Part shown: positions 2,417-38,891 of the stretch, piece by piece | How positions within the stretch are numbered: position 1 is the first letter of the stretch | Layout of the letters: every line of letters begins with the position of its first letter | DNA from: a virus | Lineage: Duplodnaviria; Heunggongvirae; Uroviricota; Caudoviricetes | Direction: 5' to 3' (one strand) | Virus record (IMG/VR): IMGVR_UViG_2576861092_000011 | Location: 1-38,891 of that record | DNA: 38,891 bases | Notes under the pieces: model-generated | Told to the model about the DNA's origin: nothing | Seen by the model: the letters and a program-made list of their open reading frames with translations, nothing else | Database searches by the model: none | Made by a program: the position numbers and the translations under genes

Positions 2417-2447
2417 AAATAGGGCGGGGAAACCGCCCTATTTTTAT
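2416..2447. terminator. Bidirectional Rho-independent terminator between convergent oac and tailspike
   Basis: Stem AGGGCGG / CCGCCCT with loop GGAAA, flanked by an A-run on one side and a T-run on the other (aaaat-agggcggggaaaccgcccta-tttttat). Confidence 0.75.
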
Positions 2448-4159
2448 CTATCCTCTCTCCACGCCTGCACGAAACATGTAACATTGATGTTTGATACTCC
2501 ATTTCCTGTGGTTGTATCATACACTCGAGCAATGGCAGTTCCACTGCTATGGTAAGTGTCAAAGCTCACTGCGTACTTGAATGGTGATGGCATAGTATTG
2601 GAGTGAAAATCTGGAACCGCCATTGCATATCTTGCATAGAATCCAAAGTTAATTATGTCTCCAGATTTTAAAGTAAGAATGTTTGTATAGTTAGGGGAGT
2701 TTGATATCTTCTCGTCAACACGTATTAGCCTCCCATTACCTTGGATAGTAATTACTGTGAATATTCGATTTGGATCATTGAGATAAACAACAGCTTCATC
2801 ACTGATAATTAGGTGACCTATTGTGCCATCGTCGTTGTAGATTTGAGGGTCGTTTATACGTACTACAGCGTTACCCCTAACCCGGAACAGGTAGGCATTT
2901 GCCCCTGCAGCGTTAACCCTGTTGAATGTCGGGGAGTTAAATGTAACCTCAGAACTAGAGGCGACCACGATAGCCTGGCTTCCTGCTGTAATTTTCCCGT
3001 TTGCAACGTCCATTTCGAAGTTAGGTTGATTAAATATGATTCCTCTTGAGTTCGTATCTATCTGCAGGAAATAAGCATTGGCGGACCCGTTATGTCCCAT
3101 GTTAAGCGCGTTGAATATCTGGTTGCTAGCGCCAGAAACTTTCACGGCATAAGCCGTCCAGTTTGCAACATAACACCCATTGAACACGTTTTGAATAATT
3201 GTTCCGTTACTGGATAGGTTAATCCCGATTCGGTTGTTATTGCACCTCATATTGTTATAAATATTTGAAAAATCAGCATATCCAGCGTTGTAACCAATAT
3301 CAAAGAAATCGAGATAAAGGTTGTTAAACTCACAGTTAACTGCCTTTCCGCAAAAAGACATGTCTATTCCGACCCCGCTACCAACAGGAGGACCGCCAGC
3401 AACAGATCCGTTAACTTGGAGATTCATGTTTGATATAGTAATCCCTCTAACGTCAGAGCCCTCAGGCTTTATTCCGATCGTGTTTATAGGAACGTTAACA
3501 ACTGTTGATGTTATGGATTCACCAGTTATGCTAGTTTTATTTTTTAACTCAAAATTACCGCTCCATACTCCATTAGGCACCTTCAGTAGACCATTGGCCT
3601 CACCTGTGGCAACGGCAATGTTGACAGGGTTTACGTTTTCATTTGTCGCCCCGTAACCACGGATATCACCAATTCTCTGATAGTCATCAACAGATATAAA
3701 ATCATGCACTGTCCTTCCATCGGTAATGCCAACCATGGAAGAACCTATTGATGATGCAAGACGCTGCTCAAGCTGATCCGGGTCGTACTTCAGTACATTC
3801 GGAAAATAAAACTGCTGCGCACCGTACGCATCATAAACAGCCATAGAATGGCCTTGCACGGTAACGAATTTGGCAATCTGTCCATTATATACAGGGTAAC
3901 CAGCAGCGTTAATGATGATTGGTTGCGAAACAGGAACGTGAGAGCCGTCTTCGCTCTCCATATAAACCTGAATCTGGTTTTCAGGATTTACCGGATCAGT
4001 GTCAATTTTTCCTATATAAATTTTGCCATTGGCAACCGCTTTAAAAGAACGTGCCATAGTGAAGAGTTGCGAAGGCATGCTTACCACAACATTTGCAGTG
4101 ATATCTGACATTTCATTGCTCCAGACGAATGATATGATGCAACCATGATGTGATTGCAT
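2444..4159 (-). CDS. Tailspike protein: P22 gp9-like N-terminal head-binding domain plus distinct beta-helix receptor-binding/O-antigen-depolymerase domain
   Basis: N-terminal ~110 aa ([46 protein letters not shown]...[15 protein letters not shown]...NVLKYDPDQ) closely matches the P22 gp9 head-binding domain; the rest is Asn/Gly/Ser-rich repetitive sequence typical of right-handed beta-helix. 3' part is AT-rich. Confidence 0.9.
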
Positions 4160-4232
4160 ACCAAAATGGTACTATTGAGTATTTATCCAGTAGGTTACGA
4201 TGCCATTCCACCCAACTGGTGAGGCATCAAGG

Positions 4233-26049: not shown

Positions 26050-27486
26050 TCAGAATCCTCCTTTCTTCTTGGATTGCGGTTCCTCGCGTTCACGGCGGCG
26101 CATTTCAGCAGACTGTTGGTCTGTGTCATAAATAGCGCCATTTGCCTGAATGCAATACACCGTGCCGGTATTGCCATGACGATTGAGACGAAGGATTAGT
26201 TCGGTTTCACCAGGTGGAACACTGTCATCAAAAGCACCTTCACGATGGATCCCCACCCAATAATCGCAATCCTGTTCAATCTGCCCTGTATCTCGTGAGT
26301 CACTTGGTAATGGGCGTTTATTGGTTCGGCTTTCCAGTGCGCGGTTAAGCTGTGTCAGAAGCACAACAACGCAATCAAGCTCTTTGGCAAGGTTCTTCAG
26401 TCCTTTGGTGATCATGCCGTAAGCAAGGTCGTTGCGATCGGCCTTTTCAGCGGTCATTAGTGTCAGGTAATCGACCAGAATCATGCCAACACATCCTTTT
26501 TCTCGCTTGATTCGACGGCTTTCGCTGACGATTTGAGCCAGAGATAATCCCGGCGTGTCGTCGATGTAAAGCAGGTCGATTTCACTCAAGCGATTGGCTG
26601 TTTCGATCGCCCTGTTGAAGTCACCATCGTAATCACCCTGATAGCCGTCATCAGCGTCATTTGTCGCCGGAAGGTAAAAAATATTCGGGTTAACACCAGA
26701 CTTCTGCCCTACCAGTTTTTCCAGTATCTGGTCACCTGGCATTTCAAGGCTGAACATAAGAGCGGGCTTTTTCTCATGCACTGCGCAGTTGATTGCCATC
26801 TGGCTGTATAGCGTCGTTTTCCCCATCTTAGGGCGAGCACCAATGACAAACAGAGAGCCTTTCACCAGACCTTTCGGTGACAGCATCCTGTCCAGCGATG
26901 GGATACCTGTGCTCATTCCTCGTTGTTCGCCTGATGGGTCAAATCGCTTCTCAAGGTCGCTAACCCAGTCTTCCATGACCTCACCAAATGAGCGAAGGCC
27001 GCGACGCGATCCGGTTTTTGCATGGTCTGTCAGTTGCGTGAAAATCGCCTGAATAGCTTCGTACTTCTGCGTTGCAGTCATTCCGTTGCGGGAATAGAGC
27101 AATTCCGTCGCTTCAGTCATGCGGTTGATGGCGTAGCGTTCCATTGCAGTTTCACGAACCTGCATTGCATAGGCAACGATGTTTGCGGCGCTTGGCGTGT
27201 TCTTTGCGATCTCAGCGATATAAGCAAAACCGCCAACAGACGCCGTTAACGATTTACGCTCCAGTTCATCGAAAAGCGTCAGGCCATCTACTGGCTTTTG
27301 CTCCCGGTGCATTCTGGTTATTTCTTCGAAAAGGATTTTGTGTGGTCGGCTGTAAAATGAATCAGGCTTCAACATCGCCAGAACTTTCTGGACGCGCTCA
27401 CTGCTGTCATCATCCAGAAGCAATCCACCAATCACCGCCTGCTCTGCCTCGATGCTATGGGGCGGCGCATAAAAATTATCGGTCAT
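26050..27486 (-). CDS. Replicative DNA helicase, DnaB family (P22 gp12-like)
   Basis: DnaB N-terminal domain and RecA-like core with Walker A (GARPKMGKT). Start set at ATG 27486 (GAGGGTGA RBS); a GTG at 27501 is possible. Confidence 0.85.
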   Translation of the reverse strand: MTDNFYAPPHSIEAEQAVIGGLLLDDDSSERVQKVLAMLKPDSFYSRPHKILFEEITRMHREQKPVDGLTLFDELERKSLTASVGGFAYIAEIAKNTPSAANIVAYAMQVRETAMERYAINRMTEATELLYSRNGMTATQKYEAIQAIFTQLTDHAKTGSRRGLRSFGEVMEDWVSDLEKRFDPSGEQRGMSTGIPSLDRMLSPKGLVKGSLFVIGARPKMGKTTLYSQMAINCAVHEKKPALMFSLEMPGDQILEKLVGQKSGVNPNIFYLPATNDADDGYQGDYDGDFNRAIETANRLSEIDLLYIDDTPGLSLAQIVSESRRIKREKGCVGMILVDYLTLMTAEKADRNDLAYGMITKGLKNLAKELDCVVVLLTQLNRALESRTNKRPLPSDSRDTGQIEQDCDYWVGIHREGAFDDSVPPGETELILRLNRHGNTGTVYCIQANGAIYDTDQQSAEMRRREREEPQSKKKGGF

Positions 27487-28366
27487 CGTGTTCACCCTCA
27501 CGAACTTTCAGGTAGGTATTATCGTTAAGCAGGAAATCAAATCCCTTTTTGTGCCAGACAGTTCCGCGTTGATGGTTTGGACGCTCTTCGAACATCCATC
27601 GACAATTTTCGCCTACGTAGCTCAAATAATTTCTCCAGTCCTGCATCGTGAACCCATGCCCGTCAAGCTGGCGGGTTATCACTCCGGCTTTGCGCCAGAA
27701 CGTTCGGATCTGGTTTTTACGCTTGTCATTCAGTGCGCGGATTCTTGGCGCTTCAGGAAGGATTTCGTGGTAAGCATCGACAACATCCTGACAGCTGACG
27801 GAAGTTTTTTTCTTGTCAGACTTTTTGTCTGCTGTGGCACTCTCTAATACGTCAGTATTAGAGATATTATTTATATTATTGTTTATGGACAACCGTTGGA
27901 CAACCGTTGGACAATCTCCGCTGAGAGCCGCGACATTACTGGTGTTTGCGTTGGACAACCGTTGGACAACCGTTGGACAATTTTTTGCCTGAAAATCGTC
28001 ATATTTAACGATTGTAAACAGGCTAAATTTCTTCCCCATCGAGCAAATATTAAGCATCCCTTTCGACTCAAAAGTCCGTAATAAGCTCCGAACTTTGTTG
28101 TCGGGGATGAATGTTTCTCTGACCAGCGACGGGCGTCCAGTTATCATCTGACCGCGATCAACAGTTATCGGACCGATATCCGTATTGACGACAGTAGATT
28201 CGTGATTAGCCTTGAGGATTAAGTGAAGCCAAAGATGTACTGCCTGAGAGTCCTTATAGAGCCTGCTGTCCATAAACTGGCGGTGTATAGAGACATACCC
28301 CATACTGGATGCCTCCTGATGTTGTACAGGGTTATGCCTGTAATCAGCTAACTTAACGACGCCCAT
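27476..28366 (-). CDS. Replication initiator protein (lambda O-like) containing the origin iterons
   Basis: 296 aa downstream of cII and upstream of helicase; iteron cluster and AT-rich segment lie inside the ORF as in lambda ori. Confidence 0.8.
   Translation of the reverse strand: MGVVKLADYRHNPVQHQEASSMGYVSIHRQFMDSRLYKDSQAVHLWLHLILKANHESTVVNTDIGPITVDRGQMITGRPSLVRETFIPDNKVRSLLRTFESKGMLNICSMGKKFSLFTIVKYDDFQAKNCPTVVQRLSNANTSNVAALSGDCPTVVQRLSINNNINNISNTDVLESATADKKSDKKKTSVSCQDVVDAYHEILPEAPRIRALNDKRKNQIRTFWRKAGVITRQLDGHGFTMQDWRNYLSYVGENCRWMFEERPNHQRGTVWHKKGFDFLLNDNTYLKVREGEHDDR
27855..27981. repeat. Replication origin: two clusters of 11-bp iterons (GGACAACCGTT x2.6 each) plus adjacent AT-rich region
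   Basis: 27887..27915 and 27953..27981 each read GGACAACCGTTGGACAACCGTTGGACAAT; AT-rich tract at 27855..27886 (tattagagatattatttatattattgtttat). Confidence 0.75.
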
Positions 28367-28548
28367 GTTTCACTCCTGCTTTGGCTAGTCTGTAAACACC
28401 AACAAGGCGCTCTGCGAACGCCCTGTTATTTGCTGCGGCTACCACTAATCCCTCAGGTGAATCAGAGTGTCGAATCTCTTCTTTTTCCTGGTATTTCTTA
28501 CGACGTTTTGTCATAATTACTCCTGTGGATTGATCCAGTCTTTCTACA

Positions 28549-28827
28549 TCAGGCCTCGAAGAATTCGCCGTTCTTCGGGGCTTTTTCTTTTGTCAGCATT
28601 CTGGCTACTTTCTTAGCCAGTTCCGCCAACTCCTCGTCTTCAACACCCCATTCAAGAACAGCCAGAAGCATTCCCATTTTTGGGATGAAGCTGTCTTTCC
28701 ATCGCGAAATTTGCGATTCATTAATCCCTAACGCGTCGGCAACCTTTCGCTGGCCACGTACAGCAATTCGATTCAGGATGTTGCTTGTAATTGCATTCGC
28801 TTTCTTGCGAGTACTTGTAAGTTGCAT
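28549..28827 (-). CDS. cII: CII-like transcriptional activator (P22 c1 / lambda cII family)
   Basis: 92 aa; ..SQISRWKDSFIPKMGMLLAVLEWGVEDEELAELAKKVARMLT.. closely matches lambda CII. Confidence 0.85.
   Translation of the reverse strand: MQLTSTRKKANAITSNILNRIAVRGQRKVADALGINESQISRWKDSFIPKMGMLLAVLEWGVEDEELAELAKKVARMLTKEKAPKNGEFFEA
28553..28590 (+). terminator. Rho-independent terminator on the strand antisense to the cII 3' end (OOP-like antisense RNA terminator)
   Basis: Plus strand GCCTCGAAGAA-ttcgccg-TTCTTCGGGGC (about 11-bp stem) followed by TTTTTCTTTT, inside the 3' end of cII on the opposite strand, as for lambda oop. Confidence 0.5.
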
Positions 28828-28886
28828 ATGTAAGTATTTCCTTAACTAATAAGAAGTTATGCGCATCAACTTATGCGCGTTGTATT

Positions 28887-28929
28887 CCCGCATTTCGGCG
28901 GGAATGAGGACCATGACTGTTAAAGAGCG
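28887..28929 (-). promoter_or_regulatory. nutR: boxA (CGCTCTTTAACA) followed by boxB hairpin (CCCGCCGAAATGCGGG)
   Basis: On the minus strand downstream of cro; boxA and boxB are identical to the nutL copy upstream of N. Confidence 0.65.
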
Positions 28930-28935
28930 GTGTTA

Positions 28936-29130
28936 CTATTTGTTTTTCTTGTTGCTTGGGAAAGGACGAACTTCCTCTCCAATCACACTGCCATCAGGCT
29001 TTACCGTAACCATAATGTTACGACCTGCCAGAATGGCCTTGCTGATAGCGCACTGGATTACACCAAAGTCACTGGCTGCTTTAGCCTGTCCATGGATTTT
29101 GGCGTAATCGGCAAGTGTCATTCGAATCAT
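28936..29130 (-). CDS. cro: Cro repressor
   Basis: [62 protein letters not shown] aligns with lambda Cro; GGAGAG RBS; divergent from cI. Confidence 0.8.
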
Positions 29131-29160
29131 ATGCACTCTCCGTTATTAACCATGAACAAA

Positions 29161-29225
29161 GAATACTACAGGTATTCAAAGCAATCAATACTCAGGGTAT
29201 TTTTAGTTTAAGTACCTTAGCTATT
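29161..29225. promoter_or_regulatory. OR operator region (PR/PRM): palindromic sites AATAC-N5-GTATT
   Basis: GAATACtacagGTATTC (29161..29177) and AATACtcaggGTATT (29188..29202) are perfect dyads; a weaker third site at about 29211..29225. cI ATG has no Shine-Dalgarno, compatible with a leaderless PRM transcript. Confidence 0.55.
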
Positions 29226-29236
29226 AGAATTAAGCT

Positions 29237-29953
29237 ATGGAAAATAAAAAATCACTGACGACAGAACAGCTCGAAGACGCTAAGCGGCTTAAGGCTTTGT
29301 ATGAGTCAAAAAAGAAAGAATTGGGAATAACCCAATACTCAATCGCTGATGAACTGGGTATCACCCAAGGAGCGGTAGGGCATTATCTTAATGGCAGAAA
29401 CGCGCTAAATGTTGAGGTCGCATCTGGTTTTGCACGTTTGTTGCAAGTCTCAATTGCTGATTTTAGCCAGTCAATTGCTGCCAAGGTTGCAGAACAGGCA
29501 GAAAGCCTTAAGAGCGATGCCAACGTAAGGTATGCAGGGGAATACAGAGCAGGAAAGAGGTATCCGGTGTTAAGCAGTATCCAGGCTGGCTCGTGGTGTG
29601 AAGCATGCGAACCATACACCATTAAAGACATAGATGTTTGGCTTGAGTCTGACGCGCATATTCAAGGTAATGCGTTTTGGCTTAAAGTGGAAGGTGATTC
29701 AATGACGGCACCGGTTGGGTTAAGCATTCCAGAGGGAACATTCGTTCTTTTCGATACCGGAAGGGAGGCGATCAACGGCAGCTTGGTCATAGCAAAACTT
29801 TCTGACTCTAACGAAGCAACATTCAAGAAGCTGATAATCGACGGCGGAAATAAATACCTCAAGGGACTTAATCCTGCATGGCCTCTCGTGCCAATCAATG
29901 GAAACTGCAAGATTATAGGCGTTGCAATTGAGACAAAACTCAGACTGGTTTGA
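29237..29953 (+). CDS. cI: CI repressor (HTH plus S24 LexA-like autopeptidase domain)
   Basis: 238 aa; N-terminus similar to lambda CI (..LTTEQLEDAKRLKALYESKKKELGITQ..); C-terminal ..AFWLKVEGDSMTAP.. and ..FKKLI.. match the S24 Ser/Lys peptidase signature. Confidence 0.9.
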   Translation: MENKKSLTTEQLEDAKRLKALYESKKKELGITQYSIADELGITQGAVGHYLNGRNALNVEVASGFARLLQVSIADFSQSIAAKVAEQAESLKSDANVRYAGEYRAGKRYPVLSSIQAGSWCEACEPYTIKDIDVWLESDAHIQGNAFWLKVEGDSMTAPVGLSIPEGTFVLFDTGREAINGSLVIAKLSDSNEATFKKLIIDGGNKYLKGLNPAWPLVPINGNCKIIGVAIETKLRLV

Positions 29954-29971
29954 TCACGCAAGGGGGCGCTT

Positions 29972-30340
29972 ATGGTTGGAACCGCTATAGCAAGCTTTTT
30001 GGGGATGTTGGCAATCTCAACAATTTACGGCTTAGCGCATGCTTTTATTGCGAAATCTCTATCAGAAAAAATAAGCCAGGCTTGGGCGCATAGATCAGCT
30101 CGTTTCATGATTCTAGTTGTCATAGCAATACAAGGGATATCTGCATTTATCCTCTATGGATCAAGCTTATACCTATTGTATCAAGGCGCGACATTTACGC
30201 CTTACACCAGTGATTACGGAACTCTATACGATGGTAGTGAAGACATCACTGTGGCTTGGATCGTCTTTGGTTTATCTATGGCCGTGTCTGTTGTAGCAGA
30301 CATCATTAAGGTAATTCTCGTCTTAACCTTCGCTGACTAA
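29972..30340 (+). CDS. Small integral membrane protein co-transcribed with cI (rex/sie position); candidate superinfection-exclusion or abortive-infection factor
   Basis: 122 aa with 3-4 predicted hydrophobic helices; strong RBS AGGGGG; 18 bp after cI stop on the same strand. Confidence 0.6.
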   Translation: MVGTAIASFLGMLAISTIYGLAHAFIAKSLSEKISQAWAHRSARFMILVVIAIQGISAFILYGSSLYLLYQGATFTPYTSDYGTLYDGSEDITVAWIVFGLSMAVSVVADIIKVILVLTFAD

Positions 30341-30427
30341 CCTATAATCCCGGCAGCAATAGCTATCGGGATCCACTTCACATATCCCGCATAAAAAGCA
30401 CTGAACAAGCAGACACCGAAAAAAATA

Positions 30428-30512
30428 AATATCCTTTGTATTCATTTGCTTATCATTATTTCACCAAAAATAAATACCTTGGGTATTTACACAATAAAAT
30501 ACCTACAGTATT
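30428..30512. promoter_or_regulatory. OL operator region (PL): AATAC-N5-GTATT sites
   Basis: AATACcttggGTATT (30473..30487), AATACctacaGTATT (30498..30512), weaker AATATccttttGTATT (30428..30442); same half-sites as OR. Confidence 0.55.
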
Positions 30513-32280: not shown

Positions 32281-33179
32281 GCAATATCGTTGAATTCGTT
32301 AAACAGCAGGAGCAGTTATTCTGCGGAGCATTGACTGAACAGACGGTGACATGGGCTAAGGAAAGCCAGTTTGCAATTCAGTATTTCCAGAAAAACGATT
32401 ACCTGGCTAAAACGGCACTGGCAAATCCAACCAGCGCACAGAACGCCATCATCAATGTTGCGGCGATCGGCATCACCTTAAATCCTGCCAGCAAACTGGC
32501 TTATCTGGTTCCGCGCGACGGCATGGTGTGCCTTGATATCAGCTATATGGGATTGCTACATATTGCAATGGAGTCTGGTGTTATCTCATGGGGTCAGGCA
32601 AAACTTGTTCATGCTAACGATACCTATGAGTCAAACGGGCTTGATAAAGCACCAACCCATAAATACAACGCCTTCGGTGATCGTGGTGATATCGTTGGCG
32701 TTTACTGCACAGTTAAGACGCCAGCAGGTGATTATCTAACGGAAGAGATGAGTCTGGCTGAAATTGAGGCTGTAAGGAAAACAAGCAAGGCAGCATTCAG
32801 CGATAAAGGACCATGGGTAAATCACTGGAATGAGATGGCGCGAAAGACGGTCGTAAAGCGTGCAAGCAAGTATTGGCCTAAGGCATCACGTCTTGATAGT
32901 GCTATTCACGTACTAAACGAAGAAGAAGGTGTATGGACTGAACCAGTTATGCCGCACAAATCAGAGGAAGATATCCGCGAAGATGAACGGAAACTCCAGC
33001 AGGAAATAACGGATAAAGCACAACTTCTTTGTGATGAAATGGCTCAGGCAGAAAACATGGATGATTTGAAGCGATATTTTGCAGAAGCATATCGCCTGAC
33101 ATCTGGAATGAAATTGCAGCAGAACGTACAAGCCATTTACATAGAATGCAAAGCGAAACTGGAGGTTGCCAGTGAGTAA
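32277..33179 (+). CDS. recT: RecT-family single-strand annealing recombinase
   Basis: 300 aa; ..KGPWVNHWNEMARKTVVKRASKYWP.. matches the conserved RecT motif (NGPWVTHWEEMAKKTAIRRLFKYLP in Rac RecT). Confidence 0.85.
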   Translation: MSNIVEFVKQQEQLFCGALTEQTVTWAKESQFAIQYFQKNDYLAKTALANPTSAQNAIINVAAIGITLNPASKLAYLVPRDGMVCLDISYMGLLHIAMESGVISWGQAKLVHANDTYESNGLDKAPTHKYNAFGDRGDIVGVYCTVKTPAGDYLTEEMSLAEIEAVRKTSKAAFSDKGPWVNHWNEMARKTVVKRASKYWPKASRLDSAIHVLNEEEGVWTEPVMPHKSEEDIREDERKLQQEITDKAQLLCDEMAQAENMDDLKRYFAEAYRLTSGMKLQQNVQAIYIECKAKLEVASE

Positions 33180-37643: not shown

Positions 37644-38891
37644 CTATATTGCTGAAGGTACAGGCGTTTCCATAACTATTTGCTCGCGTTTTTTACTCAA
37701 GAAGAAAATGCCAAATAGCAACATCAGGCAGACAATACCCGAAATTGCGAAGAAAACTGTCTGGTAGCCTGCGTGGTCAAAGAGTATCCCAGTCGGCGTT
37801 GAAAGCAGCACAATCCCAAGCGAACTGGCAATTTGAAAACCAATCAGAAAGATCGTCGACGACAGGCGCTTATCAAAGTTTGCCACGCTGTATTTGAAGA
37901 CGGATATGACACAAAGTGGAACCTCAATGGCATGTAACAACTTCACTAATGAAATAATCCAGGGGTTAACGAACAGCGCGCAGGAAAGGATACGCAACGC
38001 CATAATCACAACTCCGATAAGTAATGCATTTTTTGGCCCTACCCGATTCACAAAGAAAGGAATAATCGCCATGCACAGCGCTTCGAGTACCACCTGGAAT
38101 GAGTTGAGATAACCATACAGGCGCGTTCCTACATCGTGTGATTCGAATAAACCTGCATAAAAGACAGGAAAAAGTTGTTGATCAAAAATGTTATAGAAAG
38201 ACCACGTCCCCACAATAAATATGACGAAAACCCAGAAGTTTCGATCCTTGAAAACTGCGATAAAATCCTCTTTTTTTACCCCTCCCGCATCTGCCGCTAC
38301 GCACTGGTGATCCTTATCTTTAAAACGCATGTTGATCATCATAAATACAGCGCCAAATAGCGAGACCAACCAGAAGTTGATATGGGGACTGATACTAAAA
38401 AATATGCCGGCAAAGAACGCGCCAATAGCATAGCCAAAAGATCCCCAGGCGCGCGCTGTTCCATATTCGAAATGAAAATTTCGCGCCATTTTTTCGGTGA
38501 AGCTATCAAGCAAACCGCATCCCGCCAGATACCCCAAGCCAAAAAATAGCGCCCCCAGAATTAGACCTACAGAAAAATTGCTTTGCAGTAACGGTTCATA
38601 AACGTAAATCATAAACGGTCCGGTCAAGACCAGGATGAAACTCATACACCAGATGAGCGGTTTCTTCAGACCGAGTTTATCCTGAACGATGCCGTAGAAC
38701 ATCATAAATAGAATGCTGGTAAACTGGTTGACCGAATAAAGTGTACCTAATTCCGTCCCTGTCAACCCTAGATGTCCTTTCAGCCAAATAGCGTATAACG
38801 ACCACCACAGCGACCAGGAAATAAAAAAGAGAAATGAGTAACTGGATGCAAAACGATAGTACGCATTTCTGAATGGAATATTCAGTGCCAT
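37644..38891 (-). CDS. cscB: Sucrose:H+ symporter (LacY-family oligosaccharide permease), host gene
   Basis: 415 aa, 12-TM MFS pattern; matches my recollection of E. coli CscB (MALNIPFRNAYYRFASSYSFLFFISWSLWWSLYAIWLKG...). Window ends at its start codon. Confidence 0.85.
   Translation of the reverse strand: MALNIPFRNAYYRFASSYSFLFFISWSLWWSLYAIWLKGHLGLTGTELGTLYSVNQFTSILFMMFYGIVQDKLGLKKPLIWCMSFILVLTGPFMIYVYEPLLQSNFSVGLILGALFFGLGYLAGCGLLDSFTEKMARNFHFEYGTARAWGSFGYAIGAFFAGIFFSISPHINFWLVSLFGAVFMMINMRFKDKDHQCVAADAGGVKKEDFIAVFKDRNFWVFVIFIVGTWSFYNIFDQQLFPVFYAGLFESHDVGTRLYGYLNSFQVVLEALCMAIIPFFVNRVGPKNALLIGVVIMALRILSCALFVNPWIISLVKLLHAIEVPLCVISVFKYSVANFDKRLSSTIFLIGFQIASSLGIVLLSTPTGILFDHAGYQTVFFAISGIVCLMLLFGIFFLSKKREQIVMETPVPSAI

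Follow-up and report, generated by a model that had tools for sequence, protein, structure and literature searches.

A probable pO-oop-tO unit antisense to the 3' end of cII in a P22-like lambdoid phage

A phage sequence of 38,891 nucleotides (IMG/VR record IMGVR_UViG_2576861092_000011, Caudoviricetes; positions 1 to 38,891, the whole of which is referred to here as the window) was analysed with respect to a plus-strand element which overlaps the 3' end of the gene for the transcriptional activator cII. The stretch at 28489..28591 (+) is very probably the pO-oop-tO unit of a P22/Sf6-like lambdoid phage, i.e., the promoter pO, the small antisense RNA OOP and its terminator tO. An OOP-like antisense RNA over the 3' end of cII had been proposed in the initial annotation; this proposal is upheld by a match of 33/33 to the pO/oop box, by the annotation of P22 and by RNA found in P22 and BTP1. 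As judged from the sequences, the arrangement is homologous to lambda pO-oop-tO, which goes beyond mere resemblance; the lambda-like layout suggested earlier is thus borne out by the conserved box and the identical -10 element. The element as such is already known: it is annotated in P22, catalogued for Sf6, HK620 and ES18, and has been detected as RNA in P22 and BTP1.

The extended -10 element of pO, TG-t-CATAAT, is situated at 28509..28517 (+), with the TG extension at 28509..28510 and the hexamer CATAAT at 28512..28517, and is the same as the sequence tttgtCATAAT upstream of the oop start in lambda. It is part of a conserved lambdoid box of 33 bp (28507..28539), in which the pO -10 is combined with the ribosome binding site (RBS) and ATG of the gene that follows to the right and with nucleotides 1–15 of OOP; the box is a mosaic boundary sequence as well. 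The box reads tttgtCATAATtactcctGtggattgatccagt in the window and tttgtCATAATgactcctGttgatagatccagt in lambda, where its G is the +1 of OOP (lambda 38675). Between the two, 29/33 bases are identical, and 13/15 of the first transcribed bases (counted by hand). The minus strand of the window 33-mer agrees at 33/33 positions (0 chance matches in 100 shuffles) with the consensus ACTGGATCaATCcACAGGAGTaATTATGaCAAA, which served Hayes et al. for finding oop in lambdoid phages, including P22, ES18, HK620 and Sf6 (PMC3349717). On the opposite strand, the CAT of the pO -10 is the ATG of an open reading frame (ORF) of 53 aa; in lambda it is likewise the ATG of O. The predicted +1, at about G28525, was placed by homology to the +1 of lambda OOP. 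A candidate -35 hexamer, TGGTAT (28489..28494, +), lies 17 bp upstream of the -10 and is the positional homologue of the P22 oop -35, TGGTCA.

The terminator tO is a stem-loop at 28551..28583 (+), found by a terminator scan, RNA folding and comparison with shuffled sequences, with a stem of 14 uninterrupted pairs, a 5-nt loop (UCGCC) and then TTTCTTTTGT; the U-rich tail TTTCTTTT occupies 28584..28591 (+), and P22 oop reads end in the homologous run. By the count of the scan, 6 pairs of the stem are G-C, and 3/14 are G-U as read from the pair list. No longer terminator-like stem was present on either strand of the whole 38.9-kb window. Stems of at least 14 bp followed by a T-run were expected 0.03 times per dinucleotide-preserving shuffle, and this length was reached in 2/100 shuffles. 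Folding of the RNA 28525..28593 yielded -27.2 kcal/mol (z = -5.08), which was equalled by 0/200 shuffles; the terminator of the oop unit is beyond chance. Since the stop codon of cII is at 28549..28551, hairpin and T-run occupy the last 13 codons of cII plus the stop. The initial annotation had thus placed a plus-strand terminator with its T-run correctly in the last cII codons, although the stem has 14 bp and not about 11 bp. Due to the three G-U pairs the hairpin is strong in plus-strand RNA only. The sense-strand (minus) hairpin is weaker (-13.2 kcal/mol, z = -2.1) and is not followed by a T-run on the minus strand; it is therefore not a terminator for pR transcription, and a bidirectional terminator or one of the pR operon was rejected on the same grounds.

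The predicted OOP RNA comprises ~63–66 nt (28525..28590, +), with the 5' end at G28525 by homology to lambda and the 3' end in the U-run near 28590; this placement rests on an alignment of the window with lambda, P22, Sf6, HK620 and ES18. The cII stop is at RNA position +25, and stem and U-run end at about +66. The 3' portion of ~42 nt is perfectly complementary to the cII mRNA's 3' end and corresponds to the overlap of the two genes at 28549..28590, i.e., the stop codon and the last 13 codons, TKEKAPKNGEFFEA. At the 5' end a small hairpin, GUGGA...UCUAC with an inner 3-bp stem (28525..28547, +), was present in both the minimum free energy and the centroid structure; it is a prediction without convincing covariation, and it is shorter than the 5' stem-loop of lambda. 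The GTG frame at the 5' end of OOP reads GTG GAT TGA and yields no ORF. A plus-strand ORF of 49 aa at 28467..28616 is antisense to two conserved genes.

RNA from the same or a nearly identical sequence has been detected in relatives. Small-RNA sequencing of P22-infected Salmonella recovered a 63-nt RNA, "P22C-oop" (PMC13397905); direct comparison showed that nucleotides 1–30 of this RNA agree fully with window 28528..28557 and that its 3' end is in the homologous U-run, the P22 reads starting at the equivalent of window 28528. From the transcriptome of the BTP1 prophage, a non-coding RNA antisense to the 3' end of cII was annotated as OOP(BTP1) (Owen et al. 2020, PMC7067206). BTP1 DNA equals the window over 28528..28593, and the sole mismatch in the transcribed region is at +3. 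In the RefSeq record of P22 (NC_002371), the homologous 29 bp (32346..32374) carry the entry "promoter: oop; similar to phage lambda", and a terminator of oop is entered for the homologous hairpin. P22 oop RNA has also been reported in outer-membrane vesicles.

A scan of IMG/VR with a degenerate form of the box yielded more than 120 loci, of which 114 had enough flanking sequence for analysis. In 114/114 of these loci, a strong hairpin lies within the 3'-terminal part of a cII-like gene and is followed by a T-run starting 58–74 nt after +1; 15 distinct hairpin sequences occur among them. The collection comprised roughly 38 unique OOP sequences. The cII-like stop was always at RNA +23 to +26 (114/114), whether the next gene was O, a 48-aa ORF of the DUF2740 family or the 53-aa ORF. 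When the window allele is compared with that of P22, both bases are changed in five stem pairs and pairing is kept, while the encoded tails of cII/C1 are APKNGEFFEA in the window and PQDCGNSFEA in P22. These stem pairs were compared directly, as the MAFFT alignment of window-type with P22-type RNAs contained no gaps and had the 3' arms one base out of register. When the cII tail was recoded synonymously, 0.3% of the recodings folded as well in the antisense direction as the observed sequence (-20.0 kcal/mol, versus a mean of -10.0 kcal/mol); the same test gave 0.18% for lambda and 4% for P22. The terminator structure is maintained across divergent cII alleles, which indicates selection on the RNA. 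At least 80% of the 105-bp oop unit was present in 468/5,426 complete genomes of E. coli.

For lambda, it was described that, once OOP has formed a duplex with cII mRNA, the latter decays in an RNase III-dependent manner and lysis is favoured (Krinke and Wulff 1987, 1990, as cited in PMC13397905, PMC2327240 and PMC5869508). By analogy, we infer the same antisense mechanism with RNase III and cII for the phage of the window, together with activity of the promoter in its present context. RNA polymerase would start at about G28525 from the extended -10 promoter TGtCATAAT, which overlaps the RBS and ATG of the opposite strand, would transcribe leftward against the pR transcript, and would stop at the 14-bp hairpin and U-run within the 13 final cII codons. 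This would yield a non-coding RNA of ~63–66 nt, which could pair by its 3' ~42 nt with the end of the cII mRNA. The resulting RNA duplex should, as in lambda, be subject to RNase III-dependent decay of the cII message; lowered levels of CII/C1 would mean less pRE-driven synthesis of repressor and could bias the phage to lytic growth. Head-on firing of pO against pR may in addition influence to what extent the O-like gene and its origin are transcribed.

Several observations weigh against an active OOP antisense RNA of this kind. The -35 TGGTAT matches TTGACA at only 2/6 positions, and since the sigma-70 promoter scan demands at least 4/6 matches per hexamer, pO was not listed by it. Promoter prediction in 28470..28530, which had been suggested as a check, was thus blank with the consensus scan; pO was located by homology to lambda and P22 instead. 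The earlier remark that no clean -35/-10 could be identified is correct for the poor -35, but not for the -10 CATAAT with its TG extension. The relatives with detected RNA, P22 and BTP1, possess a better -35 (TGGTCA) from a different, orf48-type upstream region, and the OOP transcript of the present phage is predicted from its sequence. The overlap with cII is ~42 nt, compared with 52–55 nt in lambda (PMC5869508; PMC3349717), and is almost wholly sequestered in the terminator hairpin; the kinetics of pairing may therefore differ from those of lambda OOP. For lambda itself, OOP can be of minor physiological weight, e.g., after SOS induction (PMC2327240). A LexA site within lambda oop-pO has been cited (PMC5869508); the corresponding CTG-N10-CAG palindrome, which spans the predicted start site in the window (28522..28537), is weakly LexA-box-like, scoring 10.0 bits compared with 15.0 bits for the lambda counterpart and 15.6 bits or more for the training sites, with a position weight matrix (PWM) derived from E. 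coli SOS boxes, and is thus weaker than that of lambda by this measure. Finally, an Rfam scan of 27000..30500 (E up to 10) gave chance-level matches only, and in a control lambda and P22 oop themselves did not match any Rfam 15 family at the gathering threshold. Since Rfam does not contain a model for OOP, the blank in the window is uninformative. The chance-level matches were ctRNA_p42d (E = 1.4, on the terminator) and sX13 (E = 2.3).

Part of these points would also fit an explanation in which it is the promoter that counts, the RNA being a side product: head-on interference between pO and pR would tune how much transcription continues into the 53-aa ORF, the O-like gene and the origin (activation of ori by transcription), with little antisense role. 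A mutation in the -10 of lambda pO lowers plasmid copy number and alters the directionality of replication, changed levels of oop RNA do not, and direct interference of convergent polymerases has been proposed for lambda pO (PMC3985674); also, the overlap of OOP and cII in the window is short and locked in a hairpin. The antisense role is, however, experimentally established in lambda, and interference does not exclude it. Moreover, placement of the terminator inside cII is predicted by an antisense function and would be needless for interference alone; in all 114 loci the terminator lay within cII, whose stop was at RNA +23 to +26, and never in the intergenic gap. Interference as the main function would appear unlikely. 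A similarly small probability is given to the idea that P22/Sf6-type OOP works in a manner different from that of lambda, e.g., by conditional expression (through an activator, or by relief of a weak LexA/DnaA-type site at +1), by interference of convergent promoters on a gp18/gp12-type replicon, or on targets in trans, rather than by RNase III cleavage of cII mRNA. Such a mode is conceivable because the cII-complementary segment is hairpin-locked, the 5' domain is a hairpin of 23 nt, and there is almost no -35.

That no RNA is made at all is very improbable. The hairpin would then be a by-product of coding for the C-terminus of cII, or an element for 3' stability of the sense mRNA, and the box would be an RBS/ATG and recombination boundary only. 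This would be in line with the poor -35, with the annotation of the box as a boundary sequence in Sf6, with the finding that, across the box, each of the three kinds of downstream gene is combined with every cII type, and with the moderate folding (mean -10 kcal/mol) which synonymous tail recodings already show. Yet the observed sequence ranks within the best-folding 0.3% of these recodings, G-U pairs and T-run work on the plus strand only, changes between alleles are compensated on both sides, and RNA was found in P22 and BTP1. In addition, past the ATG the conserved box runs on for 24 nt (28515..28538) into transcribed sequence, an extent for which an RBS alone does not account. Hardly conceivable is the notion that the feature at 28347..28514 is the functional element and the region solely protein-coding. 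The initial annotation had listed there a minus-strand ORF of 55 aa as the competing explanation; the actual ORF is 28353..28514 and codes for 53 aa. It is a true, conserved phage gene, preceded by a strong Shine-Dalgarno sequence, and belongs to PHROG 1331, but its 5' side ends at 28514, upstream of the RNA start at 28525, and it does not include the terminator; the choice between ORF and RNA was therefore a false alternative. The same oop unit is found in phages without the 53-aa ORF (lambda) or with a different one (P22 orf48, DUF2740). A pO-oop-tO unit with an antisense RNA to cII thus remains the preferred reading.

The 53-aa ORF (28353..28514, -) is the conserved gene between cII and the O-like gene, of the HK97 gp53/Sf6 gp42/ES18 gp58 family. 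It matched PHROG 1331 (function unknown) over its full length with E = 5.3e-36; a Pfam search of it was without a match. An AGGAG Shine-Dalgarno sequence is positioned 7 nt before the ATG, and the end of the ORF overlaps the start of the O-like gene by 14 nt. The ORF is wholly upstream of the OOP start, and bases of its ATG and Shine-Dalgarno sequence are also used, on the opposite strand, by the pO -10. It is a real conserved gene and a neighbour of the OOP RNA, and both coexist. The basic protein of 53 aa, MTKRRKKYQEKEE..., is conserved in many lambdoid phages. In the window it fills the slot of the unrelated P22 orf48 (DUF2740), which is labelled "tail protein" by PHROGs and RefSeq; this name is implausible for orf48, a gene of the replication module.

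The 33-bp box behaves as a mosaic joint, as each class of cII/terminator (lambda-, HK022-, window- and P22-type) was found joined to each of three downstream genes, namely O directly, the 48-aa orf48 (DUF2740) or the 53-aa ORF (PHROG 1331) (loci L007–L126). This fits the annotation "bsq5; boundary sequence" in Sf6, a feature which overlaps the box (~window 28507..28539 by coordinate mapping). The upstream context of the window, 28489..28539, is common to HK97-like and Stx2a phages at 100%; for oop in these phages only similarity-based statements were found (PMC5488031). In Sf6 (L002), HK620 (L003) and a few IMG/VR loci, altogether 6/126 instances of the box, CCG replaces CTG in the left half of the start-site palindrome (equivalent to window 28522..28524). 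The variant would destroy a LexA half-site, suggesting that control of pO by LexA has not been retained throughout.

The source phage of the window is a P22-like (Lederbergvirus-type) lambdoid phage. The region 28300..28900 is 99.3% identical to mEpX2, 98–99% to IME10, Sf6 and HK542, and 96% to HK620 over the shared part. On the minus strand, the early-right operon contains in order cro (28936..29136), cII, the 53-aa ORF, the O-like gene and the gene for a DnaB-like helicase (26050..27501); a gene for a cI-type repressor with HTH_3 and Peptidase_S24 domains is on the plus strand (29237..29953). The putative OOP target, a cII/P22 C1-type transcriptional activator of 92 aa (28549..28827, -), matched Pfam PF05269 (Phage_CII) with E = 1.8e-42 over residues 1–91 of 92 and profile positions 1–91 of 91, and the homologous gene carries a cII/C1-like label in the records of mEpX2, Sf6 and HK620. 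The sequence TTGCGAGTACTTGT at 28805..28818, in the 5' end of cII (read from the sequence), matches the C1/CII site and pRE annotated in Sf6 and HK620; this correspondence to the TTGC-N6-TTGC type of C1/CII binding site supports the identity of the gene. The O-like/gp18-like replication initiator (27476..28366, -), with internal iterons, is named "DNA replication protein O" in the annotations of mEpX2, Sf6 and HK620, and in the same three records a rep_origin is annotated inside the O gene. Four iterons of the TGGACAACCGTTGGACAA type are located at ~27886..27981 inside the O-like gene of the window. Adjoining them is an inverted repeat of 10 bp, TCTCTAATACGTCAGTATTAGAGA, at 27841..27864 (+), followed by an AT-rich run; it had been listed by the terminator scan and was rejected as a terminator, the layout being that of a lambda-type origin instead. 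The top LexA-box-like score of the window (~15 bits, with the PWM from SOS boxes) was obtained far from oop, with the near-palindrome TATTGAGTATTTATCCAGTA at 4173..4192. It is situated 14 bp upstream of the start of a P22-type tailspike gene (2444..4159, -; Pfam Head_binding) and ~40 bp before an apparent short plus-strand ORF starting ATGTACAGCAAATACGAC at ~4234, which is Arc/Mnt-like as judged by eye only. This palindrome may not be a LexA site but an operator in an immI-like region.

The value of the result is mainly annotational, since most GenBank records of Sf6/HK620-like phages lack the oop unit, as do annotations of E. coli prophages; genomes of E. coli label the bases of oop only "CII family protein | hypothetical protein". 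Correct annotation of oop prevents misreading of the terminator or of the small ORF. The unit marks a control point for lysis and lysogeny as well as a recombination boundary; no new biological question is opened.

Compared with lambda OOP (pO, a 77-nt RNA and tO; lambda 38675..38599), the element of the window has the same position and orientation: it is antisense, is flanked by cII and the replication genes, and converges with pR. Both share an identical -10 (tttgtCATAAT) overlapping the ATG of the next gene, an intrinsic terminator that falls within the cII 3' end, and, at the start site, a CTG-N10-CAG palindrome. The RNA of the window is shorter (~66 nt versus 77 nt) and its 5' hairpin much smaller, the -35 TGGTAT is weaker than TTGAGT of lambda, and the gene following pO is the 53-aa ORF instead of O. 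The sequence of the terminator is unrelated to that of lambda, as the cII allele of the window is of the P22 C1 type.

P22 oop, which was described earlier by Backhaus and Petri 1984 (as cited in PMC13397905), resembles the element of the window in the gene order c1-oop-small ORF-18 (O-like)-12 (DnaB-like). In a direct comparison, RNA positions +4 to +33 were identical, and hairpin geometry, U-run and the length of cII/C1 (92 aa) were the same; the terminator differs in the inner half of the stem (five compensated pairs) and in the loop. Upstream, P22 has orf48 (DUF2740) where the window has the 53-aa PHROG 1331 gene, which results in a -35 of TGGTCA versus TGGTAT. OOP(BTP1) agrees with the window in the transcribed region and terminator, while its upstream region, including the -35, is P22-like instead. 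The oop locus with the 33-bp box was already catalogued in Sf6, HK620 and ES18 (PMC3349717). In the GenBank records of Sf6, HK620, mEpX2 and HK542 oop is unannotated; Sf6 has only the "bsq5 boundary sequence" and HK620 no entry at this locus. The cII-orf-O regions of Sf6, HK620, mEpX2 and HK542 are 96–100% identical to the window across the locus.

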